A stretch of 64,000 bases of DNA from Octopus sinensis (Eukaryota): NCBI RefSeq assembly GCF_006345805.1, contig NC_042998.1, forward strand, positions 175,398,001-175,462,000. The letters are read 5' to 3'. Every line of letters begins with the position of its first letter. Positions within the stretch are counted from its first letter, which is position 1. The notes beneath the pieces are model-generated. The model was given only the letters and a program-made list of their open reading frames with translations, made no database searches and was not told where the DNA came from. Shown piece by piece: positions 9,301-62,705 of the stretch. A program made the position numbers and the translations under genes.

Positions 9301-12300
9301 GTGCTAGATGATACAGCCCACAACCAGTGACAAATGATGATGAATTTGAAATATTTCATATTTTTCTTTCATCTTTTCTAGAATCTGTAAGCAGTATCCT
9401 TACATATAGTAGAATGTATATACTATACCAAATTCTTTACTTTTGATGTCTTGTATTCGAAAGATACCATACCAGGCATTATATGCTATCTTTTTATTGT
9501 TGTTTAGCTCCTGATCAGCTCTGATTGAGCTGATGTATGATCAAAGGCTTTTAGCCATGACCATCCTTCAAAAAAAAATTTTTTTTATTTCACCCTACAT
9601 TATTCAATATGCCCTTCCTTTTTTTTTTTTTAAAAGAGCAGTGTTATCTGATGGAGATTCAGCTACTATTTCTAGTGGGTCAATTAGCTATGTAGAGTAG
9701 TCATAAGTAAAGTGCAGCCAACAGGACTTTCTGAATGCCAGATCTAATGAAAAATTACCATGGATTTATTTAGTAGTGTGGTTTGCCTGGTGATAAGCCA
9801 TTTCTCATGCAGCCTGCTTCTTGAAAAAGGTTGCCCATGCCTAATGTAGAGGATTCCATATTGGTTTACAATATTTTATTATAAGGAACTCCTTTGGAAT
9901 ATTTTCCCCATGTGTTCTCATTCTAACTTTTAACTTTTCTAGTATCAATATTCTGGTACACCCACCCACCACCATCACTGCAAGTTGGGATTGAAAACCT
10001 TTCGCTTCACATTTTCTTTCAAATTTTAGCAATCTAGAACCTACGTGTTTTTCTAACTAACCACATCTTTTAAGATGAAGATAAAGAAAAGTCAAAAGAT
10101 TTAGCTCAAGTTATTTTAGTTCAACTATTAATTACAGTTCGGTGATTACTTTGGATCAATTGTCAATTATTGTATAATGGCTATACAGTTAAATTGCTCA
10201 ACAATTGACCGTATGTTGTACCCCCAGTCAAAATAATTTAGTCACTGACTTGCATTTCAATGTAAGTCAGCTTACTTCAGCTTACCTAAATGACTAGAGT
10301 TTCCACTTCTACTTTATAGGTGATTAGTTAACAACAGGCTTGCTCAAATTATTTCATTTATGCTTATAAATAAACATATACGAAATAGTAAAATTACATC
10401 TTCTGATGCTTCCAAGACAATTATAACTCTCAATAGTAGTAGGATTTTTGGAAAAGATTATTTGTGAAGAAGGAAAAAAAATTGATGGCAATTAATTTGG
10501 AAATTTATTTTTAGAATAAGAAATAAAACTTAAGAAGGAAATTACAAGGTGATCATCACTAGTGTTGGTGCCATGAAAAATGCACCTAGTACACTGTAAA
10601 ATGGTTGGCATTGGGAAAGGACACTCAGCTGTAGAAACCATGCAAAACTAGACATTGGAGCATGACCCAGTCTTCTGATTTATCAGGTCCTTTTAAACCA
10701 TATAGCCCATGCCAGCATGGAAGCTGGGTGTTAAATGATGATTTAGCTAAGACTGGCTGTGAGGGTTGCCTTTCACCTTCAGAACCAAATTGTGCTTCAG
10801 TCCTGTGCTAGGTCCCATGCTACTAGTCCCATGCCAAGCATAAATCCATCCTCAACTGTTAGTTATGTAATATCAGCCACCATTTATGTGCACACATATG
10901 CACTACACATGCACACACACCTATAATTACTTCAAATGATTTAAACTTTTACAGTTTTGACTGACTTCCAGTCATTCTCCAAGTTCTACTCTTGGTCCAG
11001 TAACTGTAATTTAAAAAGCTTTACGTTGCTTTTCCTCTGAAAAGTATATTGGAGATGATTTCTAAATACATTGTCTACAAAATATAATAAGAATTTGCAA
11101 ATTATTAGTATTATATATAATATTACTTTTATTTGTTTTTCATACAATAACACAAAAGTGCTCAGTATGTTTCTATGTTAGAAATATGTAGTGTCTGTTA
11201 TAATTTGACAGCTATGGCTAGTTGTGAAGTTGATTGTACAAAATCCTTAATTATGTTTAAACTAATCCTATTTATTCACAAACAGTTACACACACACACA
11301 CATTCACACCACCATCATCATGTTACATTTGTTTTTCTATGCTGGCTTGGGTTGGATGGGCTGTCGCAATTTATGTTAATGTGCATATATATAGCAACAG
11401 AGAAAAACCAGTCAACCTTGTGTATGTCTTACAGTACTAAAGAGAGAGAGAGTCCCTTCTATCATGTCATAGTTCATAGCTGAAGTTATTTCTTTTTAGA
11501 TGGATAACATCCAATGGAGCTTGCAGAGTCCATATCTTGCTCTCATGTTCTATTTGTGGATTGGATTTAGCTATCAAGAAGTTCACATTGTCTGAATAAG
11601 TCTGCTGGGTACAAAGGTTGCTTTGTTCTGTAGGTAAATGAGGCTAGAGAGATTTTTTTATAGTGGTATCCTAAAAATGACATTGTATCCATAGCAGGAG
11701 AAGCTTAGTTACCAAGTGGGCTCAACCAAACAATAGAAAATATTTGTGAGTTTGGTGGTGGTGGGGTGGTTGAGAGTATCCCATCAAAAATAAATAGCTT
11801 GTACATTAGAACAAGCTGAAACCTTTGTGTAATTTTCATACAATGAAAAACTTGCAGAAAACATCAGACTGTATTTATAATCATAGCACATGACAGCAAT
11901 TTATACTTTGCTAATTAATTACTAGCTTCATGTACTTATTCTTCTACATCTTCACATCTGGCATGATATGTTTAGGTGAGGAAGCAGTTGTCACATGGTA
12001 TCAGTGACAATTGAGTGACAATGAATTTCTATGGTATGCATGACATTTTTATCTTTTTCATCAGAAGAGTCAAATGAGTAAAAATGAATGAATGAATAAA
12101 TAAATAAATAAATAAATAAATAAAATTTTGTTCTAATGTTACAATAGTTAGCAGTGTGGAAAGACATACTCTTCAAGTTTTGAAGATATATATATATATC
12201 ATGGAGATGCCATGATAGATCATTAGCCACTACACACATTTTTTTCTCTCCCTTGTTTCTCTCCTTTCTGTGTCCCTTTCTGTAGAAGAGCGTAGGCTCG

Positions 12301-15300
12301 AAACATAAAAGACTTTTTCTATTCCTGAGCATTATACTAATACATCTGTTTGTTTTGTACACCACCTGTTTTCGTCTTTTTTTTTTTTTTATAAACTCTC
12401 CCTATATATATATATCTATATATAAAATATTTGTAACTGGTTTATACAACTAAGAGTATTTTTGCCAATATGGCAAACAGAGCTAATAAACATACTGTTT
12501 TTTCATTAGTTTATCTGAGAAGGGAGGGGGTTACTTTAGATATTAAACTTGATGTTTTAAAATTGCTTGATGCAGAAATAAAACTTCTATTGCTAAAACA
12601 TTAAACCTTACGATGTCTACAGTAGGAACAATACATGACAACAGAGAAAATTCTGCCAAGTGTTCAGGAAGCCACTTAACTGTCTGGACCATATTTTTCC
12701 ATAGTTCTTAAAGTAGTCACCATCATCATCATTTAACGTCCACTTTCCATGCTAGCATGGGTTGGACGATTTTGACTGAGGGCTGGCAAACCAGATGGCT
12801 GCACCAGGCTCCAATCTTGATCTGGCAGAGTTTCTACAGCTGGATGCTCTTCCTAACGCCAACCACTCCAAGAGTGTAGTGGGTGCTTTTATGTGCCACC
12901 GGTATGAGGGCCAGTCAGGCGGTACTGGCAACGACCATGCTCAAATGGTGCTTTATATGTGCCACCTGCACAGGTGCCAGTAAGGCGACGCTGGTAACGA
13001 TCACGCTCGAATGGTGCCTTTTATGTGCCACCTGCATGTAAGCCAGTTAGCTGCTCTGGCTGCCTTTTACGTGCCACCGGCATGTAAGCCAAAGTAGTAC
13101 TTTAAGTAATTAAGTAATGCTTAATATGGAACAATTCTTGAGTGTATAGATCAAGGGTCAGAATTGACATAATATACCAATAAATATGATGGTAATTAAA
13201 AAAAAAAAGAGCCAAAAGTTTATCTGATGATTTGCCAAAAAAATGAAGGTGAAACTTATAATGAAAAATCCTTTTTGGCTTGTAATGATGAGTTTGAAAG
13301 GTTTAAGAAGTGCATAAATTTGCATAATAAAAAAAATGACTGTTGAAACTGCAAGTGCTGATACAGAGACAGCTACTAATTATCTTGGGTAATGTTAATG
13401 AGACTGCACTTTTGTTGAAGAGTATGTTTGCTAAATCTTTTATTTCTTGAGAAGAGTAATCACCATCAAGATTTAAAGCTTCTAAAAACCATCTGACACA
13501 TTCTTTTGAAAGAAAATACCACAGGTGGTATTAACTCAAAGCCCTTACATGTGTATCATTCTGAAAATCTAAGGGCTTTTAAGGGTTACACAAAGTTTAA
13601 TCCACCTCTGATTTGGCATTCAAATAAAAAGGCATGGATGACTTAGAGCCTTTTCAAAGAGTGATTTGCAAACCGTCATTTTATTTTTTTGTCCTTCAAT
13701 AGAAAGGTACAGTGCTAGACATAATATTTCCAACAAAGCATTGTTTCTTTTAGACAATGCACCAAGCCACTCAGCAAGCAAGTTTTATTCAAGCAAAGAG
13801 TCTACATTAAAGTCTTGCAAAGAATGTAAGATTTGAAGAAGTTATAGATGATGATGTGATTGAGTTGCTAGAGCCTGAGAGAGAAAGTTGATCTAATGAG
13901 GAGCTGATGCTGTTAGAAAAAGAACAAGCTGAGAATACAAATGAGACAATGGAAGTTCTTCTTACACCACTTAAATTGACTACAAAAATTGACAAAGGGC
14001 TGGCACTTATAGAAGAAGTTCTGCAGGTTTTTGTTGATAATGATCCTAATCTTTATATATAAAACTGAAGTTGTGTGTGTGAGAGTCTGTCTCCTCCGAT
14101 TTAGATTCCTAACTACTCCCACATTTTGTGGTGCAGTTTAACCAAAAGCGGGTATCTTATAGTCGTGATTCATATCGAGCCCTTCTGGGTATTAGTGCGC
14201 GTCTACGATGATAAAAAAATTTACCATCATTTTTTCGCATGTTTAATGCATTTTTTGCTTGGTTTATATAAGGGAAGTAACTCTCTAAAAATACTTATAT
14301 AGTTATTTCCCTTACAAACCCGAGCAACGCTGGGCGATACTACTAGTCATGAATATAACATAAAAATTACAAGAATTTACAATGAGCTCGGTTCCTATGC
14401 TGAGCTGTGCAAAAGAGATGATGTGCCATAAGCAACAAACAACCTTGGGCAAGGTTTTCACCCCTCAAGCTGATGTTCATGATAATGAACAATAAGATAG
14501 TAAATATTTCCCTCATCCTCCTAGTAACACTCATTCCAGCACAACCCCTCACACAGTAGCCAACATCTTTTGTGGTAAGAACATACTCTTACGATATTAC
14601 AATTCTTATTAATTCCCTAATTTATTCCTCTTGAAATGTTTTTGTGTTTTTATGTATCTATATTGTATTGTGTATATTTAGAAATAATTATATTTATTTA
14701 TGTATGTTTGTGTTGCTTGTTCTTTGTTGTTTTCTTGTACTTTAAAAAAAATATCTATAGGAACACAATAACACTTGATAATATGAAAATCAATGGGAAA
14801 ATTAATTTCATGAATGCATTATTTCCATAAAGTAAGGGATTCTTGTTCTCAAGTATGCTTTGAAAAAGTTAAAAAACAGAAGTTACAAATGAAAATAGAT
14901 ATTTCTTCAAATAAATCATATTAAATTTTGTTCATATATGTATGTTATTTTTTCAAGGTGAAGAAACTTGTCTATGTGTATTTAACCCGTTATGCAGAAG
15001 AACAACAAGATCTGGCATTGTTGTCAATAAGTACGTTCCAAAGAGCCCTGAAGGTAAAAACTAAATTTTGCTGTCATTAGTATAGGGTCAATGCCCATAG
15101 CCTTTCAGGGATTTTCATACCGAGAAGGAAGTGTTACTGAGTGAAGTTAGTGTTGCAAATTTTCAGTTTAAATTATTAGTTGTTTGAAGGATCATTGATT
15201 GGGATTCCAGTATTCTAGAGGGATGAATTTCTAGAAAGAATGATTGGAGAAGGTTAAGTATAGCATCTGGTTGATGAGACAACAGAAATGAGTTATTTGG

Positions 15301-18300
15301 ATGGATGTAATTTATAAATTTAGCTTACCTGAAATATATTTTACAGTTTATAGTTTTTTGAATTACAGTAATCCCTCGCTATATTGTGGTTCACCTGTCA
15401 TGGTTTATTAAGCTTACGATGATTCCTCTGTGGTGGTGTTTTGCATTTATAATAACATAAATATATACAAATTATAAAAATAATGAAAACGAAATATACA
15501 GTACAGTACTGTTTCTACTTTGCGGATTTTCACCTATCGCGGGTGGCTTTTGGAACATAACACCCGCGATAGTCGATGGGATTTATCATTTTTAAAGTAA
15601 TTTCTAATTCAAAGATGAATTTCTGTAAGTTGATGACTGTAGAGTCAGTTTAATAGGGACGGGTTTCAGAGGGTGACATAGAGATGCAGGATTGAGTGAA
15701 ATGTTTGAAGAGTAAAACAGCGGGTACAATGGGAAGAACCGGAGTTGCACAAAGCTTTACTGGTCCAAAGGTGCAAGATCCATTGTAGTAATGAAGGAAT
15801 AGACAGAGAGGGCACATAGCATGTCAGATGGGTTGTAGTTGAGTGTATTTGTGAAAGTTTCTTCATGAATTTAAACAAGTTAGCAGTGTTGATAGACTCT
15901 TTTTCAGCTTGGGAGGGTTTGCAAGGTTATGGGTACTGTTCTTGTGCCTCTGACTATCTTATAAAATGTAAAATAGCTAATATGATGGTTAGCATATGAT
16001 TTAGTTGAGTAAATGTTTTCACACAAGTATGTATCTTATGTATCTTAACATGGTAGTGTGTAGGATATTTTGTACTGTTGACTTTGTGATTAGTAGTTCA
16101 CTCCTTTAGCCTTCATAGAAAGGAAGAAAAACAATAACATTAAAATAAACATTATACCAACCCTTACCTAAACATTTGATTTATAGTTGCTTAACGATGG
16201 CTTCTTTAATTTCAGGACCCTAACCAGCTAATCCGAGCCAGTGCTTTACGTGTCTTATCTAGTATCCGTGTTACAGTTATTGTTCCCATTATGATGTTAG
16301 CTATTAAAGAGGCTGTAATGGATATGTCACCTTATGTGCGCAAGACTGCAGCACATGCTATTCCTAAACTCTACAGGTGAGCAAGCAAGATTTTTCATTT
16401 TTATTTGAAATAAAAAATTTTAAGTACAAAAAGCCTGATTAATAATCAAAGGATTAACAAATGTTCTTGTTAGTGTTAATTAACTGAGTCACTGAAATTT
16501 CTTCTTAATTTTTAATATCTTTAAACTTTCTCTCTGTTATATATCACAACATCTGCTCTGTTAACAGTTTGGATCCAGAACAGAAAGACCAACTGATTGA
16601 AGTTATTGAGAAACTCTTGGCTGATAAGACCACAGTGAGTTATTGGCTTTTATCTGATTCAGTATAAGTTTTATTGTTTCTGGTTCATTTACCAGCAGAG
16701 TGCATCTGTATTTTATTTCACTGAATTTTGCATCTTCATTGACGAAGGACATCATGTATTGTTTTAAAAAATAGATATTATTTTAGACATCATACTGTTT
16801 ATTGATTAAATTTTTTTTCATGTTATTTTTTCAGCTTGTTGCTGGAAGTGCTATTCAAGCCTTTGAGGAAGTTTGCCCAGAAAGGATAGACTTGATACAC
16901 AAGAACTATCGAAAACTTTGTAATCTGCTGGTAGATGTTGAAGAATGGGGCCAGGTTGTCATCATCAACATGCTGACACGATATTGTCGGACACAGTTTA
17001 CTAATCCAAATCAAACTGTAAGTATGATTTTTTTTGTTTTTTTATCAATTTCATTTCAGTTTATTTTATTTTTGGCTATTACAAAGATTTCACATTTTTA
17101 TAATTAACTTCATTATTTGTGCTTGCTAATTAGATAAATAGAATTCTAAACACAGGTATCTGAGAGGAAAAGTTGATGTTACTGAAGTAGGTGCCTGTTT
17201 TATAGCGTATGAACATCTTGTTTGCTATAACAATTAATTACATACTGAGCAACTGCTATAGTATCTTAGCTCTGAACAAATGCTTCTAATCAAAATAACT
17301 TTGAAAATTCATCATTTTTATTAAGGTTGATATCAAGCTAGCTAAGTGGTTCAAATATTTTTAGTAAACTTCTGGAATGGAATATAAGAAGCAGAAACTT
17401 TCATGCAAATATTATAGATGATAAAAATAGCTGATAAATTGTTAATAAGGAAGACAATAAGCGTTCATAAATGCATTTCTAAATAATTAAAAAATAATTT
17501 GAAATATACAGAGACACTTTATTTCTTAATAACACTTAATAATTAATTTTGGACTAAAATCATCATCATCATCGTTTAATGTCTGCTTTCCATGCTGGCA
17601 TGGGTTGGACGGTTTGACTGAGGGCTGGCGAACCAGAAGGCTGCACCAGGCTCCAATCTGATCTGGCAATGTTTCTACAGCTGGATGCCCTTCCTAATGT
17701 CAACCACTCTGAGAGTGTAGTGGGTGTTTTTATGTGCTACTGGCACGAGGGCCAGTCAGGTGGTACTGGCATCGGTCATGTTCAAATGGTGCTTTTTATG
17801 TGCACAGGAGCCAGTCCTGTGGCACTGGCAATGACCATGATAGAACAGCTGAGATTTACTTCTGTTCAATCAATATTTATCTAAAGAAATGCACTACTTT
17901 GTAATAATGAATTATTAAACATTCCTTTGTTAGAAGATATCATGTTTAGGAACTACATTTTACTTGAATAAATATTTTCTTGTCTGACCAGGAAACAAAT
18001 GATGAATCTGAACAGCATTTTTATGATGATTCTGATAAAGAAGAGGAAAAAGAAGATAGTAAATCTGTGAAGAAAGTGTACAGCATGGATTCAGATCACC
18101 GCCTGTTGCTACGGCAAACTAAGCCCTTGCTCAATAGTAGGAATGCTGCGGTAGGTTACTCTTTTAATGAGTATTTTATCTTTTCTTTCACATCTTTATT
18201 GTATCACAAGCTAGCAACAGTAACTTTTTTCATCTCAGGAGGATCAGGATGACAACAAAATTATTGTAGTTGATATTTTTTTCATCTGAATTTTTGCAAA

Positions 18301-21300: not shown

Positions 21301-22327
21301 AAATTATGATCAGTTTCTTATGGGTAACTGATAGCATATATGATATATAGCTATGAAATCACAGTTAAAGTTTGATTATATTGATTATATTGTTAGGAAT
21401 TCGAACTTTGTGTAGCCATTATATTAATGAAACATATAATTTTATTTGTTTGCCTGACAATCAGTCTTCTCACTTCATTGTTGACTGGTTAATAGAAAGA
21501 AAGGCTCTAAAAACTGCTACTTGAAGAAAGATTTCACTCTTGCTACCATGGAAAAAATGGATGTTGAACATTGGATACAAAGCTTGTGGTATTTGCTTTG
21601 GCTTAAGTTCAAATCTCAATCCCACATAAGTCAATTTTGTCTTTCATATTTTTAGGGTCAATAAAGTATCAATTCAGGGTATTGGATTGTTAAAATTGTT
21701 AGAGCATCGGACAAGATGCTTTGTGTTACCTGTTCTCACTCTTTGTGTTCTGAGTTGAAATTTTGCCTCCTATCATTCACAGTAGGAAATAGGTCCTTTG
21801 AACCTGTTAATTGTGATAGAACTTCCAGTGTCAGTTGGATCAACATGTTTATTGGAGAAATGTCCCTGTCAAAAACATGTTGACCCTGCACTGAAACTAG
21901 ACAAAAAAAAAAAAAAAAAATGGAGAAAAGTGAATTGTACAAAGTTACTTTCATATATCAGTAAATTATAAAGCTTAACTTTAGTGTTAAATCAAAGATA
22001 ATACTTTAGCTATTTTGATATGAAGAATTTTTTTTACATTTCAAGAGGTAGGAGTATAGAAAATTCCAGCAAGATATATTTTTGATTTCAACATGTCATT
22101 TTGTTTTTCTGACATTTTAAGATGAAAGAATCATATAGCATTCTGTGTGTTAATATTTTTTAATAATGAATGGCTCATAAATTTTGACAGTTTTGAGTTA
22201 GAAATGTTAACTTATAAAAACCATATTCCTCACATACACACTTTTTAAATATAAACTTTTTCAGACAATCAAAATTTGTTATTTTCTTATTTTAATGTTA
22301 TATTTCAGATTTCTGTTTGTAATTTTT

Positions 22328-22372
<45 letters not shown>

Positions 22373-25300
22373 TATGCATTTAAATATATATACATATGTA
22401 TTAGTATGTGTGTACATATGTATATGTGTGTGTACACATACATATATAATTTTGGTTGTAAATATTTTTGCAGCTAGAAATCTTGACTAGTCTTGCCACA
22501 GAGACAAACATATCCACTATTCTTCGAGAGTTTCAGGTAAAGTTACTGCTGTTTTTTTTTCTATTTCTTTGAAAATTATTTTGCATAACTGTAAAAACTT
22601 CTGTAAATTTCTTTTTAGTAAAACACTAAACATCTATGAATTTTTTAAATATAAAATGGTTTTAAAGTACTTAGTAAACTGAAAGCCTTTTTACATAGTT
22701 AAGAGCTTTATTCATATTTTAAACAATTATTAATCATAACTTCAGAAGGCATTTGCCAAATCAAATAAACTGATGGGCATAAAAATAATTTCCACAAGCA
22801 GATTATTTCCATTTCACAGATGGAAATAATTTTTATTACATTGGTATTGATAACATCTGATTATTTTATTTATATCATGTTGTAAATGAAGTGTAAATTA
22901 AAACATTAAATTCTAATTGAGGTTTTATGTAATAAATTTATAGATTGTGCCAACTGAGGAAAAAGTATGGTGTGTTTTTCTGTACCTTAGGAATATCTTC
23001 TGTTAGAAACAAAGAATGCAGATACTGTTTGGTCTCAAAACAGAGTATTCATCTTCTTATGTATTCAGATGGGTATATCACATGATATATATATCATTAT
23101 ATTATGTATCTGACCCAGGTGACTACCTCAAAGTAGATGATGGTGTTTTAATAAATTTTTTATCTCAATATACCTTACTGGTGACTCAGTGCCAATCTGT
23201 ATGTAGAAACTAATTGGTAGACTCTTATTTTACATGAAGCTTCACATGGAGACTGGAGTGAAGTGTGTGCCACATCTGGTAACATGGTATTGTGTAAAAT
23301 AATGATAATAATAGTAAGCTGTGATTATGTTCTGTAGAGTAATGATTTCATGTGTTTTTACATTATGCTCCCAAGGAAGTCATGTTATTTCGCAAGTCTC
23401 AGCTTGCTTAACAGTGGATACCATTCTCACTTTAACTGTTGAAAGTTCTAGTGTAAGAAGGACATCTTGGCATTAAAAAACCTCCCAGAAAATCTCTTAA
23501 TCCAATAATATACAGATATCCAAGAGAGTATTGTAGTTCACTAGAAGCATTGTGTTTTGTTTGTAAGCAATAATAATAATTAGCAATAATGTATTTTGAA
23601 TGGCACAACAATGCACTATAATAACTGGTGTAATTTAATCATCCATAGTCTGATATAATATTTCAGAATCTAAAAATTCCTTCTTCAGATAACCCTAGGA
23701 ATTGATTGATCAATCCCTAGGGATGTCTGAAGAAAGAATCCATAGTCTGATATATATTTCAGAATCCATAGTCTGATATAATATTTCGGAATTTAAAAAT
23801 TCCTTCTTCAGACATCCCTAGGGATTATTCAATCAATCCCTAGGGATATCTGAAGAAAGAATTTTTATATTCTGAAAAATTATATCAGACTATGGATGAT
23901 TAAATTACACCAATTATTATAGTCCATTATTGTTATTATAGTGCATTATTGTGCTATTCAAAACACATTATTACTGATATCCAAATTTTCAAAATGTCTC
24001 CCATTTGAGTTGACTATATTATTATAGTAAAAAGTTGAGGGAAAGAAATTGCAATGAGAAGTTGTCAAAATATGAAATCCTGTCACTGAAATCATAACTT
24101 TTTAGTGTTATAGTGAAAAATTTTTAATAGTTTTCTTGAGAATTTTTGGTATTTGAAGAATTGTCCATCCACGGACACTTCTCTCACAAACTCGGCCATC
24201 ATTTTGTTGGCTTTTTGCTCCCTGTTAATCTATTGTAAAGGTACTATAGTTGTAAGGTTCTAGATATAGAAAGAACAAAAATTCGAACTAAGCTATACCT
24301 GAAATATAGGTGTTAGTTGTATATCAAAGTTTAGCAGTCAATATTTGAAAGAAATCAAATTTTAATTTTCAACTTTTGATATAAAATTGATAATTGAAAG
24401 AATTTGAAGAAGATGGGCCATTCTCATATCTCTTTTCAGTTCTTTGTAGAATAAAGGATAGGAATAAATGGATCGGGTTAATGAAGCTAATATTTAGTTT
24501 GACCTCTTTTAGTTTAGCAGCTGAAAGATAACCAGGAAGAGAAAGTATGTTCTGCATACATCATACATGCAGTTCTGATTAAAGAAAGTAGTGAGATATG
24601 GTGCAGTGGTATAGCAGTAGAGGTAGGACAGAAGATACAGCTACAGCACCAAAGATTAAAAAATATCCAACTGAAAATCCAAATTGGTAGAACTTTTATA
24701 AAACTCCTGAATTTAAATGTTAAATTCTCTAATTTTATATTTGTAGACCTATGTAACCAGTGCAGACAAAGCATTTGCTGCAGCCACAATTCAGGCAATT
24801 GGTCGTTGTGCTAGCAATATTGCTGAGATCACAGATGCTTGTCTCAATGGATTGGTCCACCTTATGTCAAATAGAGATGGTAAATAGCCCTTTTCCAAGA
24901 TTTCTTTATTGTAAAATAAATGTTTTAACACCATATTTTATGTTGCAGTTGGTCAAGTTAGTTGTATGTGTTGGTATGCTGGTTGCTATTTCTAGGCCTT
25001 CATTTCATATTTTAACAAGAGAAATATATGGTGTTTCTAGAAAGGATACTAAATTCTTAATAAGCCAAACCACATAGTTGTAAATGAATTTCTAAGTGAG
25101 ATACAATTTGTTGTCCTTTCATGAGTGTTTTAATCTAGGCAAGGAAATATCACCTAATTATGAAAACTGCTCATTTACATTGCTTATCCAAAAGCCTCTT
25201 ATAGTTAGCACCTTCATGACTTTTTCTTTTTACTATCACAAGGGAAGAGATGTCTGTTATTTTAACACTTTTTCCCAATGATGTTTTGGTTGATGCAGTT

Positions 25301-31300: not shown

Positions 31301-34300
31301 CCACTAAATGGTTGATTGGTTACTTCCATGTTGTGAATTAGTTCATGTACAGTTGACTACAAATAACAACTTTGTGCGTGTGCTTGCACATGTGTATGTA
31401 TGCCTGTATGCATGTGTGTGATTGATATTCATACTAATTAGCAGAAACTGTGTTAAGTAAGACAAAACACAAACTGTTCACTTATTTATTATCTAATTTC
31501 ACTCCAGTTAGCCTATTAAGTAAATATTAACATATATTTGTCATTTTTAGAATAAATATTGGCTTTATCACGCCTACTAGTACTATCACCTGGCAACGCC
31601 GGGTCATAGTGCTAGTGCATGCATATACAGCTGCATGCGTGCGCACATACATGCGAGTACCGTCCAAATCTCTGACCAATCACATACAGCTAGCTGGCAT
31701 TCAATTGTCGTATCAAGTTTCGAGCATTTTGATTGGGTTTTGGATAGAAAATTCACAAAAAAGTCACTTCTATTGATTTTTTAATGGCTTTGTGGGGTGA
31801 CTGGGGAAATGTGAAGATGTGCACGACCATCCTTGGACGGTTTTGAATGACCATAGAAAGTGCGAGCCCTCTAACTGAAAAATTGTGGATTTGTATAAAG
31901 GACACGCACACAGACAGACATTTTGCCGTTTATATATATAGAGATGTTCAAACTATTTTTTAGCATCCTCATAACAGTATGATAATACCTATTACTGTAT
32001 TTATCTTAGATTAGATGGAAGTGATATAAACTTAGTGTAAGCATTTCAGTTTAACCATATCTTATCTCTTGACATCTACAGCATTTAGATCCTGAAATAT
32101 TTTGCCTTCCTTGTTATTGGTGGATCAATTCCGTCTGTGGCTTGGTTTCATCTTACACCTAAACCTATTTACTTCACTTCATGGATTAGTCTTCTGACTT
32201 TGCTTCCATTCTTACTTGGAACCTATCTTACTTAGGGAGCTGAACTGCTGCAAACTCCTCTTTCTATTAAAAAAAAAAATTTTTTTTAATTATTCAACAA
32301 TTTTATTTGCTTTCTCTTTCTCCTGATATATATATATATATTTTCGTTTCTTTCTTTATAGTTCAACTATCATTTTAAAAATTCTTTTTGGTTTTGAACA
32401 GAAGTTATGTTTATGGTATGCTTTGCTGATTTGTTCTGTTCTTTAAATCAATTATTTTTTCCTTCATGGCCTTTTCCTAGATCTTATTTATATTACTATT
32501 ATTATTTATAATAATTATAAAATCATTTATCTTCAACAATTGCTGAATTTTATTTTAACACCAAATGACATTTTCTTTCTTCCCTTCCCTCTGCTGGTTT
32601 CTTTTGTTGTCCTATGTAATTTTGTTTTTTTCCATAGTTATTTTTTCTTCACAGAATTTTGGAATTTATTATGTGTATATACATATGTGTATGTGTTTGT
32701 TTTAACAATCCGCTTTATATCGATTGCTGCTATTTTATTATCATCTTTATACTATAAAACACGTTAGGTTTATATTCTCCATAAATGCACACCACAGAGA
32801 AATTCTAAAAGTTTAATCATTGGGTTAGGTTGATGCATAAATATCAAATTTACATGCATGAGTTCAATAGCATGCTTGAGACTTTTGTGCAGGTGCACGC
32901 ACTCGTACACATCACCACCACCACCACTACCACCACCATCACTACTTAATATTTTTGTCTGGGTTGTCAATATGTAATTAAATTATTTTCAGTCTAGTCT
33001 GAATTTTTAATACATATACTGTCTTGTAGAATGCTAGTGTTAAGTTAAAGATTTCTGTTTACGGATAATATTTTCTTGTCTGAATATATAAAGGTTGAGA
33101 TCTGTAGTAATGCACGTTAGTGTACATCTACATACATATATTTGTGTAATATACGATAATTTGCTTACTGGGCACATGTGCTATCATATACGCTACCCTG
33201 GCTTCACAACTTTCCTTCCCAAACTGAAGCACAATTGGTTTTCTATGACATTGAACACCTATATCAATAGCCTTTTTACATGTCTGATGTGGAGTTTGTC
33301 ACCAACTTCATATGCAGAGTTAGGTGTCTTCAATTAATGATTACCACAGCTGCAGTTCTTGTTTTGGTTGCATATATAAACAAGATTGAACCGACCCCAT
33401 CCCTATAAATATTTTAATCTCAGTTTGAAAATGGAAATAATTGAATTCAGCGTGATATAAATGATAGCACATCTGCTTACTATGCAAGAGATGTCTGGTT
33501 CAATTCCTGACAGTTCTTTATTTAATTATGTTTAACAATCTTAAAATATGGTTTACAATTATACACCATTAAATATGGTTTATATTAAAATCTTAGCTGT
33601 TAATTTCATATATATCTATATATATATATATATATATATTTAAAAGTAAGTAACTGGTAAAATTTGTATGTATTATCTGGCAGCTTATCATTTTTAAGAA
33701 GTGTAAAATTATTTTGAGAAAACCTTGGTATTAAATTCTTCTGTGCATCTAATTCCCCATAGATGAATGTTCCTTCTTTGGCATTTAGACTTTGTGTATA
33801 GTGAATAACAAGGATTAAAACACATGGCATGATAATTAGTTGCTAGGCACTTTCAGTATTATGCACAATGATAGGTAACAGAAGTACTTCTTGTAAGCCA
33901 ATGTTTCATTTCTGTTCTGAATCTTGTTAGATTGATTAGATGTTTTTGTCTATCTCATGTTAATAGTTATCCATATCTATTTAGTCACACACACGGGCCC
34001 ACAAGGAACTTCTATACTGTTGGATAATTTACTAGATATAGCAACCACATTTCTCTTAACCTACTGATTTAAGAAGACCCTACTATCTTAAAGAAAAGAA
34101 AGACACATTGGTCTTGTACTGTTTGGTAAAAAAACAAAAAAAAACGGGATGAGATGGTGGAGGCTGGAATACCTTTATCCATAGCTTTGCTGGATGCAGA
34201 GTAACTGGGAACTAAGCAACCATACACACTATTATTTACATAAATCCTAAAATATTAAACCAATTATAGCAGCGATTCCATCAATTCCTAGGGATATCTG

Positions 34301-37300
34301 AGGAAGGAATGTTATTCCAAAATATTATCACACTATGGATGGTTAAATTACAACAGATATATCGCCTATTGTTTGTATTATAGTGCATTGTTGTACCATT
34401 CAAAGTATTTTATTCTTTACTTATGATATGTATTTTATGATCTACTGAGTTCTGGATAGTTTTGAAGTGAAGAAAAGATTGCAAGAATGAGCTAGAGAAG
34501 CAAAAAATTGGACCCCATAAAACAATGTAATACTAATTTTGCGATTCTGGACATTTGCTTAAGTCTGGTATAGTTCTAATCAATGCTGATAAGTCTGAAG
34601 GGGTTCTTAACAGAAACGTAGAAACAAATGTCACAGTAGTTTGAATGGTGCCCCAGCATGGCTGCAGCCTTCAGGCTGAAACATTTTTACGGATTTAAGG
34701 ATTTATACATCATATGTTTGGGTGATACAAACTGGAGGTTTTTTTCCTTTTACAGTTTAATGAAGTTGAAGGGAGCTACACTCATGACCTTCAAATGACT
34801 TAAGATTGACTGCAGAAAAAAGCATGAACAGGACAGAAATTCCAGAGGGATTATGTTGTAAAGAAGAAGAATTGGGAACTTGGGTCAGTTTGATATTTTG
34901 GGAGGAGAAGTATGAGTAACAAGAAGCAGAGTGACAAATATGTTTGGTGGGAAGTGATTTCTAGCTAGCTCTGACACAAGTTATCACTACTGAGATGCAC
35001 AATACTCTGTGCTTCTCAGTAGTGATAGAATAAGTAATGAAAAGACAGCATGTATGTGAGCCAGAGATTGAAATATGTTGATGAGTAAGTCTAATCAACC
35101 AAATAGTCTTTCTTTGGTTGTGGTCTAAGATGTTTGTTTGTGTTGTAGTAGCAACAGCAGCAACAACAACAATATAGTGTTCCAATTGTGAGTGTAATAT
35201 TCTATTCTAAGTATCATTTGAACTTTGTAGAGAAACAGCAACTAATTACATCTGATGTTTTAGTTCTGATGAAACCAAGTCAGGTCTTTGTGATAAAGCA
35301 TTTTTTTCTTTGTTATGAATGTAGTGACTCCAGAAAATCTTAGAAATTGTGTGGCCTAGTATTTGTAGGACTTTGGGGAATTTAATTGCCTGTTGCCCAC
35401 AGTTAGGGGAGATGAGGTACATGATTGCTTTATTGATATGTGCAATGTATAATATTTGTGTTGTCATGAATACATTGGAGAATGTTTGCAAGGTTTCTGC
35501 TTATAGATGTTGTGTAGGTTTGATATGAAGTATCTAGGTTGCATATGGATGTCGTTTACGGTTAAAGAGGAATGAAGAGTTATAGGAATGAGCATTGTTT
35601 GAGGTGATAGCCAGCAGGTCATTTTTAAAGTATTTAAGGAAGAATGTGAGGGACATAGTGAAACTTTGCAGAGCAGCAGGATTGATAGTGTGGATCAGAG
35701 TGAGTTTCATCAACACATGCACTGTGATGACACAATCTGTTAAAAATTTTTCAACACAAGATGGAGCTTTTCAATGGAAAGTTTAGTCAGGAATGTTTCA
35801 TGCTAGATATCGTCAAATGCTTTGTTGATGTCATGGACAATGTTGATTTTGTCAGATTTCTTGAGTGTGAGACCAGTTGTGAGTGACATAAGACAGCAGT
35901 TCTCCAGTTCCCCATTAAACCATGAGGCCTTTGCAATGCTTCTACAATTATTTATAACAAGGTTTTAATCACAATATGAACAATATATGAAATTATGATG
36001 AAAGGATGGGCAACCTCAAGCTTTTTGGAAGAGCTACTTTATTGTCTTGTTTCTTCATTGAAACTAAATTAATGATTGTTGTGCATGTTCCTCCACTCCA
36101 TTTTCCCACCAAATTTAAGGTATAGAAAAGATTTTAAGCACCAGAATTTAAAAGCAAATAGTGGCAGTTCACATTCACAAATATCAGTCCAATAAATGTC
36201 TCTGTTTTCCTAGTTCCTAAACATTTTTTATTTTAAAATGTATTAGCACATTTTTATTTCAATTTTTCTAAATAGACCTCCTTATGTAACGTATTTAAAA
36301 TTTTATAATAATAATAGTAATGTAAAAAAAAAGTATATGTGGTATATAGGCTCCTTAAAAAACTTTTAGTATGTAGGGTAATGTCCAATTTATTGTCATA
36401 ATTTGCAATTCACATCTTGTTTTATGCTTAACTTTCAATATTATTTAAATAATTGTAATCAGAATCAATGCTCATTAGAACTTAAGGTACCATGATTTAA
36501 TTTCAACATTTTATTACAGAATACTGATCTCTAATTTTTCTAAATTAACATAACTATAAGAAATTGAATTAATCCATTCAGATGAATTTTTCTAAACCAT
36601 TATTATTTTGTTTATATTACTGGAATTTGGACTTGATTTATGTTCACTCAATATTAGTATTGTTAGTAATTACTTTAATCCAGTTTAGATTAGTCTTGCA
36701 TTTCAGTTCTGTTTGCAATGAGGTGACATTTCCAGGATTAATAAATTGATTTTCAAATTATTTCCAGGTTCTTTATTTAAATTGGTATTTATATTTGATT
36801 TTATGGTGTGACACATCTTAGTTTTTTTGTTTTTTTTTAAAATTTATCAACTAAAATATGAGCAAACCCATGCCTTAAGAAGTTTGCTTCCCAACCACTT
36901 GCTTTTGGGTGCAGTCCCAATGCTTGGCACCTTGAGCAAGTATCTTCTACAGCCGCAGCTGACCAAAGCTTTATATATGGATTTGGTAGACAAAAACTGA
37001 AAAAAGCCTGGATGTGTGTGTGTCTTTGTGTTTGCATCTCTCCTTCCACTGCTTAACAACTGGTGTTGGTTTTTTTACATCCCCCATTACTTAGGGTTTA
37101 GCAAAAGAGTCCAATAGAATAAGTACCAGACTTAAAAAATAAGTACTGGGGTTGATTTTTTTGACTAAACCTCTTCAGGGCTGTGCCCTAGCGGTCTGAA
37201 GTCCAATGACTTGAAACAAATGAAAAATAATTATTTAAGGAATCTGCTAAAATCTGTTTAAAAAAAATTTGAAATTAGTCTGACTTTATTTCAGCCAAAA

Positions 37301-39835: not shown

Positions 39836-39866
<31 letters not shown>

Positions 39867-42800: not shown

Positions 42801-45800
42801 TTAACCTTGCTTTGGAGATCAGTGGTAGCTTTTCACTTAATCACTGTGAACAATTAGGCTAGTAAAGAAATGTTGTTCCTTCTTCATAGCAGATTGTATA
42901 TCAATCAAGTCACTTGCTTAAAATAGAGAACTGATTGAATGGATTAGGCAGGTATTGGAGTGTTGGATCAGAAGTCATCAGTTCAACTCCAGTATGGGTG
43001 TTTTTGTATTTCTAAAGCAGTACACTCAATTCTGCATTGTCTCAGTTCATCAAATGCTTTATTTCTTGAAGTTGTTGTTTAGCTCCAAGTTGGTCCTAAT
43101 TGAAAAGACAAAAGGTACTCTCTCAGCATAAGGTACTCAGAAAGGTGATGGAAAAAGAAGAATATCTTTGAGTCAGTGAGTTGGCAGAATCAATAGAGCA
43201 GAATCAATAGAGCAGTGACGTTCATTCCACCTCTTGACATTTTAAGTTCAAATTCTGCTGATTTTAACTTAGCCTTTTATCCATCCAAGGTTAGTAAAAT
43301 AAAGTATCAATCAATAGTATCAACTAACCCTACTTCCTTTACTGACCTTGTGCCTAAATCAAAAGCCTATAATTAAAATGAATATGTAAATCCAATCTCA
43401 CAATTGCCTCTTAAATTTATTTTAAAAGTTACATAAAGAGAAACAGCCACATGTGAAAATTTGGTATTTGGTTGTTCTTTTTAAATCTATTGTCTGTTTT
43501 CTTGTTTTCAGAGGAATCAAGTAAATCTAGCAATGAGAGCAGTGATGACGAGGATGATGATGAGGAGGACGAGGATAGTGAAGAGGAGAGCTCTAGTGAT
43601 GAATACTCTGAAGTATCTGGTGATAGTCATGCAGTAAATAATGCTGTTGCCAGCAGTGCAAATGATGATGGTGATGGAGATGATGATGAAGAGGATGAGG
43701 ATAGTACATCAGATGAATCTGAGGAGGAGAGTTCAACAGAATCCTCTTCTGATGAAAGTGTTAAACATGTAAAAAAGACGAAGAAGGTAAGAAGTCTTTT
43801 TGTAGAGGTTTCATAACTTGTCTTTTCCTTTTAGTCCGTGGCAGTTCTTAGTTCCTGCTATCATTTAGTATTAATCTTTAATCTATGTCTATACTGTTAA
43901 TCAGTAATCTCTGTTATCTAAAACCACACACATCTAAAACACTCAGGGTTTTTACATGCTTCACAATTTGTCATGATCTTTCCTAGCAAATTCTTATCTA
44001 TAGCATTGCTAAACTGCATAACAAAGTCTTCTCTGATCATCTGGCACTTTACAAAGTACAAGTGTGAGTTACAGAATTCATATATCTAAAATGTCGGTGC
44101 ATTTATTGGCCATGCCTGCTACTCTGTTGCTTTTCCCAAACACAAGCAAAGCTTGTCTTTACATTCCAGTTGTTCAGATTCTTTTATTTAAGGATTACCT
44201 AAATGTACATACATGTATTCTTATAAGGACAGAACCAAGAGAAATTAGTCAAGACATTAGAGAGACTGACTGGATAATGAAGTTTAAAAAGCAAAAAAGA
44301 TGGTCATGAGATATCTGGTTACAGAGATCAAATTTAGTAAAGTCCTCCAAAAAGAACATCTTCCCAATGGTATTCTGGCAGATTCTGCAATTTTAGAATT
44401 CATACTACTGACTTCCATGTCTAATTTGTTCTCATATTACCCATTTCCAGTAGATTTGTAAGGGTTATTCTACCTTACAGAATTCTTTGGTGGGAGAGTT
44501 CTTTCCTTTGTGTAATCTAGCTGAGTTGTATTATACACTCAGTCTATAACCCCTTTATCTGTTCTTTAATTCTTTGTTGTCTATACAGCTGATCTATAAT
44601 TTCTATGACGTTAGTTTTTAATACTTGTTGTCAGAGGTTTAGTCTTCAATTTATGTTGTTTATGTAATTGGTCTGTAATCAATGTTGTATATGCTGTCAG
44701 TTTTTAATCTTTGTTTATGAAATCAGTTTGAAATTTTAATCATCCTTTGTCATACAAAGAATGTTGCTGACTTTCTGTTGTATTTTTACCCAGTCAAAAC
44801 CCACTACAAATAATAAATCAGCAACTCCTGCTTCCAAAGACAATACAAACCTTCTTTTGGACCTTGATGACTGTGAGTATTAAGATCAAACTTGTTAAAG
44901 CATTTATATATTTGTTGAGGTATAGCTGAAAGAAAACTAAATGTACTGTCAATTTACTAAGAATGAAAGGGAATTGGTTGTAGCACAGTTCTGCCCATTG
45001 TGATGAAGAGTGACTGTTAACACTGTAGATTGATTGGTATTTGTACTTTTTTGTGTATGTGTGCATCTGTATACATGTATATGTATGTTATAGTCTTTAA
45101 CAAAGATGAGATAGTTTTGGACCAATTGTTTTTGATCATCCCACCACTAACCACACAACTGAAATGGGATAAGAAACTGTTAACCAACCAGTGTGTTGCA
45201 TGCTCAACTCTATGGTTCAGATCTTGTTCATATCAACTTGGTCTCCTCTTTTTAGTCCTGTATAAATAAAATAATTAGAACTGTGTATTGCAAGAATTTT
45301 CATACAAAACATCAGTCAAAATTGAGGTATAATATTATAGAAGTGTAAGAAAAAATTTGAAAGAGGCTAAATGTCTTGTTGATTTTTAGGTAGAGTGGGA
45401 ATCACATGTTTGAGGTTGCACTGTACTTGTGTAAATACATTAGATTGGTTATGTTTTGATTTGAAACCTCTCAGATTTTGGGCAAGTGAATAAAATGGAA
45501 AGAGGAACTATTGAAGTCAACTATCAAGAATATTTCTCCATAAAACCATCACTGTATGCTTGTCGTAATAATTTCAGATAATAAAAGAACCTCTCTATGG
45601 TTGCTTGATCTGCTAGCAGTAACAGCCAGATCTCCTTCAAACACAGATTGGATAATGTAATCAGGAGTGCGCTATTCATAAAAAAAAGAATGGGTTGTTA
45701 TCAGTTGAATGCATTTGATCTAAAATTTGCTTGACTTGGGGCCATCTTGAGACTAAACAATAACTCCAAATATTGTGAATTTGTAAGTGTGTTGGGTGAT

Positions 45801-48800
45801 TGATGACTGGAAAACACAGTGGAAAAAACTTCTTGTAATTGTTGAATTCTGTTTTCTGATACACCTATATTTCTATGATATGTGCAAGGCCTTCAAAGCA
45901 GGTGAGATTGATGCAGCTAATGCCTAACCTGAACATCTGAAATCAATTTCTGCAGGAAAAAACGTAGATGGGGGAGAGAATTGGAGATTTTGGTCTGCAA
46001 ATTTGCAAAAGAATGAACTTCACTGAAGGCAACTAAGGACTCAGATAGTAGTATTAAATTAGGGTGCCTGTTAACTCTGCAACCTATTAGGGTGACTATG
46101 TATTCAAATATCTTATAATCTTGGAGAGAAAAATGTCTTTAAAGCCAACTTCATCTCTTTTCTCCAATAGAATTGCTACATATTTTCTCTCTAGGTTCAG
46201 TCAAGTGAGTTTGCCCAAAATATTTGGTATGTTTGTTTGTTTGGATAGTAAATGATAAGAGGTTGTATGTGCATTTATGCATTGCAGAAATGTTGCATTC
46301 CTAAAAATCTTGCCATTACATGGAATTTCATAACACAAAAGTCAAAAGGAAATAGGTTTCATGCTCCAGAATTCCTGATTTTCAGGAATGCAATGTTTCT
46401 GTAAAGTGTGGGATACCTGTATAAAATTATTTACATATCAGGTTTAATTTCATTTTTCATCATTTTGAATTGATAAAATATGTATTTATAATATACTGAG
46501 ATTGATTCAGTTAATTATTTATCTTCTTCATGTCTAAATGTCTAAGATAAGTTGCTCTTAAACTCTTAACAGTTAATTCATAATGATTTATACAGTTCTA
46601 TATTTAAGAGATGTGGAATTATGTACATTATTTACATTTGACGGATATTTGTCCTCATCTTGTTTGTTGTTAACACATATATAATATATTATATATATAT
46701 ACCCTCCAGCCTTCATCAGGTGTCTTGATATACCCTCCAGCCTTCATCAGGTGTCTTGGGGAACTTTCAAACCTGTGTTCTCATTCCTAAGGCATTTTTC
46801 AAAAAATACCTTAGGAATGAGAAACCAGGTTCGAAATTTCCCTAAGACATCTGATGAAGGCTGGAGGGTGTATCAGCCAAAATGTGTTAACAACAAACAA
46901 GATGAGGACAAATATCCATCAAATGTAAATAATGTTCATAATGATTTGCTTTTAAATTTATGATTTTCTTAATTGTTAATCTCTTCTCTAGGATATATGT
47001 TTATAATATATCTATGTTTTGATTGCTTTAATCTTTGATCATCATCAGATGTCTTATTCCTGGATATAGAGCAGCTCACTGGATAAGACTATGACTAGTC
47101 TTAGGTCAAAATCTAAGTGTCGCATTCAAATCCAGCCTGAGACCATATATATATCCAACAAAAAGTTACATTATAGCACTTAGAAATCCAAGCAATCAAA
47201 ATGTAGTGTTGATATAATTATTGTAAATAGTTGCATTAGAGATTAATAGTCAAAATATTGAATTTTTATATAATTTTTCTAAATAAATATCCTTTTATGT
47301 AATCAAGACAATTATTTTTGCTATTCATGTTAATGTTAATGCTAATAATGTTAATGTCCTAAATATTTCAGTGACCCCACAAAACACAAATGCTGTGATG
47401 ACACCAGCTGCCAGACCTGTGCAAGACATCCTCACACCTATGATTGCTTCTTTGGATCTATATAGCACACCTGTTTCAGAAAATTCTCCTGCCAATTATG
47501 TTAGTAGAATCTTTTACTGTTTTACTTTGTCTTTCATCCTTCTGCTATTGGTGGCAGTTAAACTTCTACAATTGCTTCCCATGCCTATCCCAATAAAACT
47601 GCAGCATTGCACTAAATTTAGAAATTGTTATTATGAGTAGGTAATGAGAGATGGAGAGAATGAGAAAGAAATGTTTGTGTTTGTATATAGGCATATATAT
47701 CTTATAAGTGATCTTTTGGCAGTGTATGTTGATGGAAGATGTAAAAGTCTGCAAGAAAACTGATGACCTGGTGCTTTTAGGTTCTTTGTGATACTTGTGC
47801 CAGAGATGCACATGCAATCTCTTGTCACGGTTACCATCCTAAATGCAATGATCCAGTGATTGGCACATTGGAAACATGTAACCAACAATGTTGCTGTTCA
47901 TTAAAAGTGATAAAAAAAAGATAGTGATCTTTTAATGTCTGTATATTTCACTTTGAAATCTACTTTTTTTAGTCAACGGACTGTAGCTATGCTGGGGTGC
48001 TACTTTGAGGGGTTTGGGAGAACAAATTGCCCCCACTACTTAATTTTAACTCTGGTACTTTTGCCAAACCTCTAAGTTATGGAGATGTAAACCAAGTTGT
48101 CATGCATTGATGGGGGACAAACACACACACACGCACACAAGTTTCTGCACAGTTTCCATCTACTAAATTCACTCCCTAGGCATTAATTGGGCTGGGACTA
48201 TAGTAGAAGATACTTGCCCAAGTTGCTCTGTATTGGGACTGAACTTGAAACCATTTGGTTGCAAAGCAAACTATGCTTGTGTGAGTACATATTCACAGAT
48301 CAATTTTATGTTTACAAAAAATAAATAAATAAAATAAGAGCATATGTGTCTTTGAGATAAAAGAAACCCAAAAATATTTATGCCATTATATTTATTCCAA
48401 CATCAATCTGGCAGAAGTTTAAGTAAAGAGAATTTTTCCATGCGTCTCAAAACCTGTGTTATGTTTTCCCTGCTAGAGCTATTTCAGTTTGTCCACAATA
48501 TTTCAAAGAAAGGCTCAAATGTTACAAACTCCTGACGACTATTTCACTTATATGTTAAATGAATTACTGTTTGTTTGTTTATTTTATCTATGGCTATATA
48601 TGTAGGAAGCATTATATCAACTTGCTTCCAAACAATGTTTTTTATCAGCCTGTTTATGGTTGTTCTCCATCTGTTTCTAATTTTCTGAAAAATCTTTTTC
48701 TTTTTTTTAGACACTAAATTTCCCAGTTGTCAATAACAAATCTTATGAACTATTAAATCGTATGACAGCAAAAGGTTTGTCAGTGAAGTACTGTTTCACC

Positions 48801-57010: not shown

Positions 57011-57264
57011 GAGCGGTGGTATGTAAAAAGAACCATCTGAAGGTGGTCGATGCCAGTATTGCCTGACTGGCTCCCATGCCGGTGGCATGTAAAAAGTACC
57101 CACTACACTCTTGGAGTGGTTGGCGTTAGGAAGGGCATCCAGCTGTAGAAACCTTGCCAGCTCAGATTGGAGCCTGGTGCAGGCTATTGGCTTGCCAGTC
57201 CTCAGTCAAACGGTCCAACCCATGCCAGCATGGAAAACAGACGTTAAACGATGATGATGATGAT
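57011..57264 (+). mobile_element. SINE family B
   Basis: ggcgttaggaagggcatccagctgtagaaac..gacgttaaacgatgatgat. Confidence 0.87.
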
Positions 57265-62093: not shown

Positions 62094-62517
62094 GCAGGAG
62101 TGGTTGTATGGTAAGTAGCTTGCTTACGAACCACATGGTTCAGGGTTCAGTCCCACTGCGTGGCACCTTGGGCAAGTGTCTTCTACTATAGCTTCAGGCT
62201 GACCAAAGCCTTGTGAGTGGATTTGGTAGACGGGAACTGAAAGAAGCCTGTTGTATATATGTATATGTATGTATATATATATATGTGTGTGTGTGTGTTT
62301 GTGTGTCTGTGTTTGTCCCCCCTAACATCGCTTGACGACTGATGCTGGTGTGTTTACGTCTCCGTAACTTAGCGGTTCGGCAAAAAGAGACCGATAGAAT
62401 AAGTACTTGGCTTCCAAAGAATAAGTCCTGGGGTTGATTTGCTCGACTAAAGGCGGTGCTCCAGCATGGCCACAGTCAAATAACTGAAACAAGTAAAAGA
62501 GTAAAAAAGATTAAGAG
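62094..62517 (+). mobile_element. SINE family A, full length, well preserved
   Basis: Near-identical to the 7176 copy but with more intact CpGs; possible TSD TATGCC. Confidence 0.9.
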
Positions 62518-62705
62518 TATGCCATTGTATATGTAATACAGCAAGTTAGAAATTTTTGAGTTGTCTCCCTCTTCTCTTTTGATAGTAATTAGTTCTTTAT
62601 ATAATATGTTTTCATCATTAAGTGAGTAATTTGATAAAAATTTCTTGGTTGACTGCATTGAGTATGCCAGCTCTTTCTAGAATACTATGCTACACAGTGT
62701 GTCTG

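Follow-up and report, generated by a model that had tools for sequence, protein, structure and literature searches.

Minimal Hammerhead Ribozymes of Penelope-Like Elements

Minimal hammerhead ribozymes are known from metazoan Penelope-like elements (PLEs) (Cervera and De la Pena, 2014; PMC4209133); these type I motifs have a helix I of 4–5 bp, an extra nucleotide that separates position 9 from 10.1, a G10.1-C11.1 pair, and a palindromic 15.2–16.2 stretch (CG or UA), and they occur as thousands of solo copies, some of them head-to-head on opposite strands and a few of them flanking a full open reading frame (ORF). The same traits recur in three repeat families (families 1–3) represented in the stretch analysed here, a window of 64,000 nucleotides (nt) of the Octopus sinensis genome (RefSeq assembly GCF_006345805.1, contig NC_042998.1, positions 175,398,001 to 175,462,000 of the forward strand). 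Judged from sequence, the hammerhead motifs of the window are very probably the 5′-truncated, partly inverted pseudo-long terminal repeat (pLTR) ends of three coding PLE families that carry the published minimal hammerhead, with the U fixed at core position 6 of family 1 (U6) likely under purifying selection as part of a ribozyme fold. This U6 is the point at which family 1 departs from the described ribozymes; every core in the inspected portion of the alignment of PMC4209133 has A6, with only a U3-A8 swap reported, and a text search of the supplement to that paper found no cephalopod named.

Family 1 resembles the endonuclease-positive (EN+) PLEs of the Neptune and Nematis clades (PMC8557442) in its single ORF, with a reverse transcriptase (RT) followed by a C-terminal GIY-YIG domain and joined to it by the CX2-5CxxC linker typical of those clades, in its (TA)n targets, and in its partial tandem pLTR-ORF-pLTR units, but has the U6 core and a ∼1-kb CT/CA-rich 3′ untranslated region (UTR), its clade being assigned without a tree. 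Family 3 is like the Penelope/Poseidon PLEs, including PAc of Anolis (PMC11167929), in that it has RT and GIY-YIG, with no linker motif in the 300 residues inspected, the hammerhead lies near the 3′ end, and insertions cross the uncut ribozyme; it differs in having a tRNA-like segment with A and B boxes and an (AAT)n linker between the stop codon and the hammerhead, and most of its short copies begin at the tRNA-like segment. A hammerhead within a short mobile unit is also found in the schistosome repeats Sm-alpha and Sj-alpha and in animal non-LTR retrozymes (PMC6765202, PMC7229834, bioRxiv 10.64898/2026.07.22.740005), Sm-alpha being described as transcribed by RNA polymerase III (Pol III) (PMC6765202); those are non-coding tandem repeats, whereas the motifs described here are dispersed parts of coding PLEs. 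Finally, the A6C hammerhead of phage Bcep176 (PMC3088659, PMC7151607) also has a natural pyrimidine at core position 6, but that is one case, from a phage, and has tertiary contacts, whereas family 1 has U, set in a minimal motif of the dimer type and fixed in ∼20,000 counted copies, in a lineage whose subfamilies are young.

Coding Capacity of the Three Repeat Families

DNA searches of the genome (2.72 Gb) returned at least 1,653 candidates for family 1, at least 1,465 for family 2, and at least 3,950 for family 3, all dispersed and with best identities of 88–96%; fetched genome loci are labelled L049 and so on. In family 1, a GIY-YIG domain is encoded ∼1 kb upstream in L164 and L177, the ORF has 5,187 genome candidates with open frames of up to 841 codons, and a pLTR tail lies within 1.5 kb of the ORF in 26 of 30 protein-selected loci. 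pLTR-ORF-pLTR units were looked for in this family; two of the nine long loci fetched, L271 and L281, are complete units of this kind, with the same U6 hammerhead flanking the ORF at either end and a distance of 4.27 and 4.36 kb, respectively, between the two copies. RVT_1, HTH_animal, and GIY-YIG domains are found in Atlas neighbours of the family-1 ORF (0.97) and in its 1,734 homologues, and the CX2-5CxxC linker is present between RT and endonuclease (residue 510 of L272). Family-2 loci L049, L055, and L059 extend ∼1.1 kb upstream through a GIY-YIG domain into RT motifs (YVDD), with matches to PF01541 at E values of 6e-4 and 8e-3, both under the cut-off, and with an apparent linker that spans a frameshift. 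In family 3, an RT thumb and a GIY-YIG-like end lie upstream in L115, L118, and L278, and the protein has 4,722 first-look genome candidates; the 30 loci selected by protein have the same UTR behind their stop codon, and in 15 of them the hammerhead could be scored. Around the motif the three families have no DNA likeness (best blastn E 0.48), as had been claimed when they were first called unrelated; their ORFs, by comparison, are related, the proteins matching one another with blastp E values of 1e-5 to 1e-7. By these motifs and matches, the three families are EN+ PLEs with RT followed by GIY-YIG in the ORF, for which the clade names Neptune-like (family 1) and Penelope/Poseidon-like (family 3) are provisional.

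Nested PLE fragments of other families were observed inside or adjoining copies at two loci. L044 has an inverted family-3-like RT upstream of its family-2 copy (∼250–800 of the oriented locus), and L273 has another PLE-like RT frame beside its family-1 ORF (L273:4868-5590).

A first-pass annotation of the window had proposed a PLE origin for these minimal type I hammerheads with palindromic helix III and had advised a search for RT and GIY-YIG ORFs beside longer copies; such ORFs were found for all three families, and the proposed origin is borne out. The same annotation went on to describe a radiation of non-autonomous, retrozyme-like mini-elements sharing a new core. Many short copies do have common 5′ ends and so resemble discrete units (20 of 70 copies within 11 nt in family 1, 30 of 40 within 14 nt in family 3). 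However, in other copies of all three families the same sequences run 5′ into RT/GIY-YIG coding sequence, none forms a tandem array, 13 of 30 family-2 and 16 of 30 family-3 copies have the inverted 5′ partner characteristic of PLE insertions, the genome matches are dispersed, and the extra A that was taken for a variant core belongs, together with G10.1-C11.1 and the palindromic helix III, to the published metazoan consensus (PMC4209133). Retrozymes are tandem, non-coding monomers (bioRxiv 10.64898/2026.07.22.740005, PMC7229834), and no non-coding tandem repeats of hammerhead monomers were found in the window. A retrozyme radiation is accordingly very improbable.

Hammerhead Architecture and Copies Within the Window

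In all three families the hammerhead is positioned in the pLTR of a PLE. The majority sequences of families 2 and 3 have the core CUGANGA-H ... GAAA ... UH, and all three majorities have the extra nucleotide between 9 and 10.1 and the G10.1-C11.1 pair. Helix I pairs across families with different letters (CUUU/AAAG, GUUU/AAAC, GAUAU/AUAUC, GACAC/GUGUU), as does helix II (GAGC/GCUC, GGAAU/AUUCC, GGCUG/CAGCC), and helix III is replaced by a palindromic 15.1–16.1 stretch, AUAU in family 2 and ACGU in families 1 and 3. The ACGU form had been correctly anticipated from decayed window copies; its CG is kept in 43 of 55 family-1 copies chosen independently of the core and in the majority of family 3. 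A genome search with the canonical core, CTGANGAAG-N8-24-CGAAACGT, a pattern that mixes family 3 with two further families, gave 12,465 exact matches vs. 11 for the reversed control. The window contains the following copies.

12205..12403, plus strand: family 1, 5′-truncated 3′ end (pLTR unit) of a Neptune-like PLE; ends in (TA)n and begins at the 5′-end hot spot of the family
12276..12311, plus strand: family-1 minimal hammerhead; core position 6 (12283) is the family-wide U, and the helix-III palindrome has decayed to ACAU
23586..23971, no single strand: family 2, head-to-head inverted PLE 3′-end insertion with an internal 123-nt duplication; link to the ORF in L049/L055/L059
23652..23693, minus strand: family-2 hammerhead with G10.1.U11.1 and one helix-I mismatch (U.U); AUAU palindrome intact
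23775..23816, minus strand: family-2 hammerhead, the sole window copy with all core features intact
23845..23886, plus strand: family-2 hammerhead with A10.1-U11.1; palindrome broken (AAAU)
34257..34403, plus strand: decayed family-2 copy; GAAA changed to AAAA, loop II short, helix I damaged
46591..46800, minus strand: family 3, inverted 5′ partner copy; a duplication of 31 nt and a run of (TA)n have destroyed its hammerhead
46802..46942, plus strand: family 3, 5′-truncated 3′ end of a Penelope/Poseidon-like PLE; tRNA-like head absent
46846..46888, plus strand: family-3 hammerhead, decayed; GAAA changed to AAAA (G12 lost), CG changed to UG, 3-nt deletion at the UH site

Both strands of the window were searched with the descriptor h1(>=4)-CUGNNGA-A-h2(>=4)-[G/A]AAA-NN-UH-h1′, which gave three matches (12280+, 23811-, 23850+), as compared with a mean of 0.0 and a maximum of 0 when the sequence was shuffled 60 times by block-wise dinucleotides; a version of the descriptor lacking the extra A matched neither strand. 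Rfam returned no hammerhead family for the window at E≤5, only sub-cut-off matches of hairpin-type miRNAs. The four motifs of the first-pass annotation, 12276-12311(+), 23652-23693(-), 23845-23886(+), and 46846-46888(+), were correct in place and letters, and the first and third pass the descriptor; the second and fourth fail it, the reading AAAA-U-guguu of the fourth being out of register owing to the 3-nt deletion across its UH site. Two further copies were overlooked, 23775-23816(-), which is the best in the window, and the decayed copy at 34257-34403(+). These two failures and the shortness of the motif would favour chance matches to a degenerate pattern in AT-rich DNA; however, the expectation of 0.0 in shuffles, the >1,000-fold excess over reversed-pattern controls, and the fixed position of the motif behind PLE ORFs leave that explanation next to no credence.

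The helix-III palindrome has decayed in three window copies, and the hammerhead at 46846-46888 is predicted from its sequence to be inactive. The family-3 insertion to which it belongs is without the tRNA-like head because its truncation point lies downstream of the head. The two family-2 hammerheads at 23652-23693 and 23775-23816 lie on the same strand (-), 123 nt apart, and both have the AUAU palindrome; the pair at 23652-23816(-) is therefore the only possible cis dimer in the window. When isolated motifs were folded with RNAcofold, alternative intermolecular pairings were obtained and the hammerhead dimer was not cleanly reproduced, an outcome that speaks neither for nor against a dimer. 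The 3-nt deletion across the family-3 UH site recurs (L071, L073, L076, and the window copy; 4 of 23 tail-selected and 3 of 15 protein-selected scorable copies) and is probably due to slippage in the GUU repeat.

At least two further hammerhead families were seen in the genome (L181, L183, L185, L187, L190, and similar), with canonical A6 and with C or A at N7. They have a 3-nt loop II and the helix I GUUU/AAAC, are sisters of family 1 by tail similarity, and apparently have clustered 5′ ends as well.

Altered Catalytic Core of Family 1

The core CUGANGA, assigned at first to all of the motifs, does not hold for 12276-12311, which reads CUGUAGA; its U at position 6 is family-wide and not a product of decay. 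The family-1 core CUGUNGA, searched as CTGTNGAAG-N8-24-CGAAACGT, has 19,908 exact genome matches vs. 10 for the reversed control. With positions 6 and 7 left open the pattern matched 13,792 times, with T at position 6 in 99 of the first 100 matches listed, and T was found there in all 55 family-1 copies that had been chosen without the core, by upstream DNA or protein. Lacking A6, family 1 carries a variant of the metazoan PLE minimal hammerhead. Sister families that have the helix II of family 1 and related tails, with one helix-I pair swapped, keep A6; U6 is therefore derived. Shifting the register of family 1 so as to regain A6 was ruled out, as this would place A at position 8. No natural A6U core was found in the hammerhead literature searched, a search without Lunse et al. 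(2017), Repbase, and Dfam, any of which may list U6; text searches of the supplement to PMC4209133 and of the available portions of PMC7229834, PMC12192606, and PMC11014351 found none.

To compare subfamilies of the U6 lineage, 126 copies were sorted into clusters of at least three copies (84–105 copies, depending on the threshold). The subfamily majorities differ at 0–1 of 34 hammerhead positions vs. 14–32 of 94 flank positions (Fisher p 2e-4 to 0.02), and N7 and H17 do vary among them. Pairs of copies at a flank divergence of 0.32 differ at 0.14 of pattern-free positions, and pairs at 0.055 differ at 0.058, as expected from constraint between master elements followed by neutral decay after insertion. 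Public contigs from four runs, covering three organism labels and three studies, were aligned to L271 at 80% likeness; throughout helix I, the core, and helix II, differences of ≥8% occurred solely at N7 (all three other letters) and H17 (U/A), with none at position 6. A6U is fixed in the most numerous hammerhead lineage counted and, from this pattern of change, is likely under selection, constrained as a hammerhead would be.

Several points weigh against the reading of three coding PLE families with a selected U6 fold. Pfam scans were blank for the ORFs of families 1 and 3, and a PDB sequence search gave no match for the former; the identity of the family-3 ORF comes from motif reading and from blastp matches to families 1 and 2, the clade names were given without an RT tree, and an inverted 5′ partner copy was found in just 1 of 30 family-1 copies (13 of 30 in family 2 and 16 of 30 in family 3). 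As to the constraint, the search pattern fixed ∼18 of the 34 hammerhead positions in ∼71 of the 126 U6-lineage copies, and a retest on the 18 positions free of the pattern gives a modest p of ∼0.02. The helices are invariant within the U6 lineage, with no covariation, and the sequence may be conserved for another role, such as protein binding or a promoter element, rather than as a ribozyme fold. Low activity is reported for hammerheads altered at position 6, the reduction being strong in Mg2+ (PMC3088659 section 8, PMC7151607), and in one tested PLE the hammerhead was dispensable for insertion in vitro (PMC11167929).

The low activity in Mg2+, the missing covariation, the hammerhead mutants without effect on insertion in vitro, and the family-3 insertions that pass the cleavage site uncut would all suit a U6 motif of the same PLE origin that has lost catalysis and persists only as a sequence or hairpin by which protein is bound, RNA is dimerised, or a promoter works. 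However, the changes seen from one subfamily or organism to another are confined to N7 and H17, the latter remaining A or U, a pattern closer to the rules of cleavage than to those of a generic binding site; we regard a dead U6 motif as unlikely, though as a serious contender. For the natural A6C hammerhead, cleavage is poor in Mg2+ and good in Mn2+ (PMC7151607).

tRNA-Like Segment of Family 3

The 3′ UTR of family 3 is ordered as tRNA-like segment, (AAT)n, and hammerhead, with no TTTT run from the head to the 3′ end. The tRNA-like segment begins ∼30 nt behind the stop codon, occupies ∼30–105 nt behind it (L122, L135, L149, L343-L382), and has, by the Pol III consensus of PMC8969392, an exact A box and a B box with one mismatch at a spacing of 33 nt; short family-3 units thus have A and B boxes 30–35 nt apart at their 5′ end, a trait of tRNA-derived short interspersed elements (SINEs). 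The segment stands in ORF-bearing copies as well, with both boxes in 17 of 30, and no separate subfamily of short units was shown. The head is reached by 36 of 73 family-3 copies; relative to the nominal tRNA start, 24 of these begin at -17..+16, the stretch from -18 to -95 has no starts, and 8 begin farther upstream. Among the first 40 listed of 1,951 A-box matches, a selection that excludes starts beyond +7, 30 begin at -8..+5 (a 14-nt span), 5 reach the ORF, the pLTR anchor follows downstream in 30, and an inverted copy lies within 200 nt upstream in 17. Many family-3 copies fold back at a 10-nt near-palindrome just upstream of the tRNA-like segment, which is a possible source of the 5′ inverted repeats.

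From the boxes and the clustered 5′ ends we infer a possible Pol III start at the family-3 head. Only a little short of an even chance is the competing explanation that the segment is what remains of a SINE and sits passively in the UTR, the 5′-end cluster having arisen by RT fold-back at the short upstream palindrome; the fold-back falls exactly at the palindrome in many copies, with the inverted copies in 17 of 40 just given, and family 1 also shows a 5′-end cluster without any tRNA-like head. It is further favoured by ARAGORN, which found no tRNA in 19 loci and made no call at default or -ps80, and by Rfam, which found no tRNA in six loci nor in one 121-nt stretch; at -ps70 ARAGORN does make a tRNA call, together with a second, spurious one. 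A passive remnant is less easily squared with the match of both boxes and their spacing to the Pol III consensus, with the lack of a four-T run, or with a cluster that is bound to the head regardless of the length of the (AAT)n linker. The combination of Pol III and a hammerhead is known from schistosome SINE-like repeats (PMC6765202), and our literature search found no report of a Pol III/tRNA-headed unit inside a coding PLE.

5′ Ends of Short Copies and a Proposed Mechanism

In family 1, 20 of 70 pattern-selected copies begin in an 11-nt window ∼75 nt upstream of the core, compared with 5 in the next 100 nt and 18 beyond the flank examined, and the window copy begins at this cluster too. The cluster adjoins a TCAG motif, which we take to be initiator-like. 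In family 3, all 29 tail-selected copies continue 5′ across the cleavage site. By analogy with PAc and Penelope, the clustered 5′ ends fit the copying of uncut RNA between an internal priming site and the transcript start; in PAc, reverse transcription starts internally on unprocessed RNA and the hammerhead cleaves only with protein (PMC11167929), and Penelope has an internal promoter in its pLTR (PMC2377424). Concerning insertion sites, family-1 insertions sit in (TA)n, and family-3 5′ ends are often joined to the (AAT)n tails of other retroelements (L073, L083, L086, L087, L116, L205, L207), which suggests (AAT)n targeting or microhomology joining.

A plausible course of events would begin with transcription from a promoter inside the upstream pLTR, after which the RT encoded by the element would copy the transcript, starting at an internal site close to where the pLTR ends, as described for PAc (PMC11167929). 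Many short copies would then probably extend from the internal priming site back to the transcript start, across the uncut hammerhead; families 1 and 3 each show a single 5′-end cluster, and no family-3 copy begins at the cleavage site. The hammerhead itself may cleave slowly as a dimer of two pLTR copies via the ACGU/AUAU palindrome, or with the aid of protein (PMC4209133, PMC11167929), and U6, to go by the A6C data, would lower the rate further or shift the dependence on metal or protein while keeping the fold. The window copies would be dead-on-arrival insertions that decay neutrally.

A bolder, two-part proposal holds that the most numerous and youngest PLE lineage counted runs on a still-cleaving CUGUNGA core, an attenuated, protein- or metal-gated switch, and that a second PLE lineage took up into its pLTR a Pol III promoter of tRNA origin, spawning hammerhead-bearing SINE-like units moved by the Penelope enzyme. 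Both parts together are a tentative suggestion, which we would sooner doubt than accept.

Other Features of the Window

Apparent exons of a gene for AP-3 complex subunit beta extend over 39560-52456 (+), of which the one at 40892-41149 was matched to that protein (E 1e-34); the family-3 insertion lies between apparent exons on the sense strand. The window also has two abundant SINE-like families, one with a tRNA-like head and the other ending in (CAT)n/(GAT)n and containing an internal tandem unit of 66 nt. SINE-like repeats were located at 7173-7265, 30562-30711, 36858-36950, 48117-48273, and 62094-62243, and a second group at 12717-13037, 17559-17803, 39885-40130, and 57015-57265. The region 62622-63292 is GC-richer, with overlapping open frames on both strands.

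Implications for Hammerhead Function in Penelope-Like Elements

The extra-A minimal hammerhead of PLEs, which was flagged in the first-pass annotation, is already known; beyond the published picture are the A6U core of family 1 and the tRNA-like A-box/B-box segment in the family-3 PLE. The function of hammerheads in EN+ PLEs has been called unclear (PMC8557442), and a lineage in which A6 has changed while the rest of the motif stayed frozen through several subfamily radiations is a natural experiment on that function, with A6 and U6 directly comparable, as A6 sister families with the same helix II are present in the same genome. Standard CUGANGA descriptors would overlook more than half of the motifs counted here. 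If the tRNA-like segment does act as a promoter in the pLTR, it would offer a simple path by which an autonomous PLE could give rise to a ribozyme-bearing parasite of SINE-like form.

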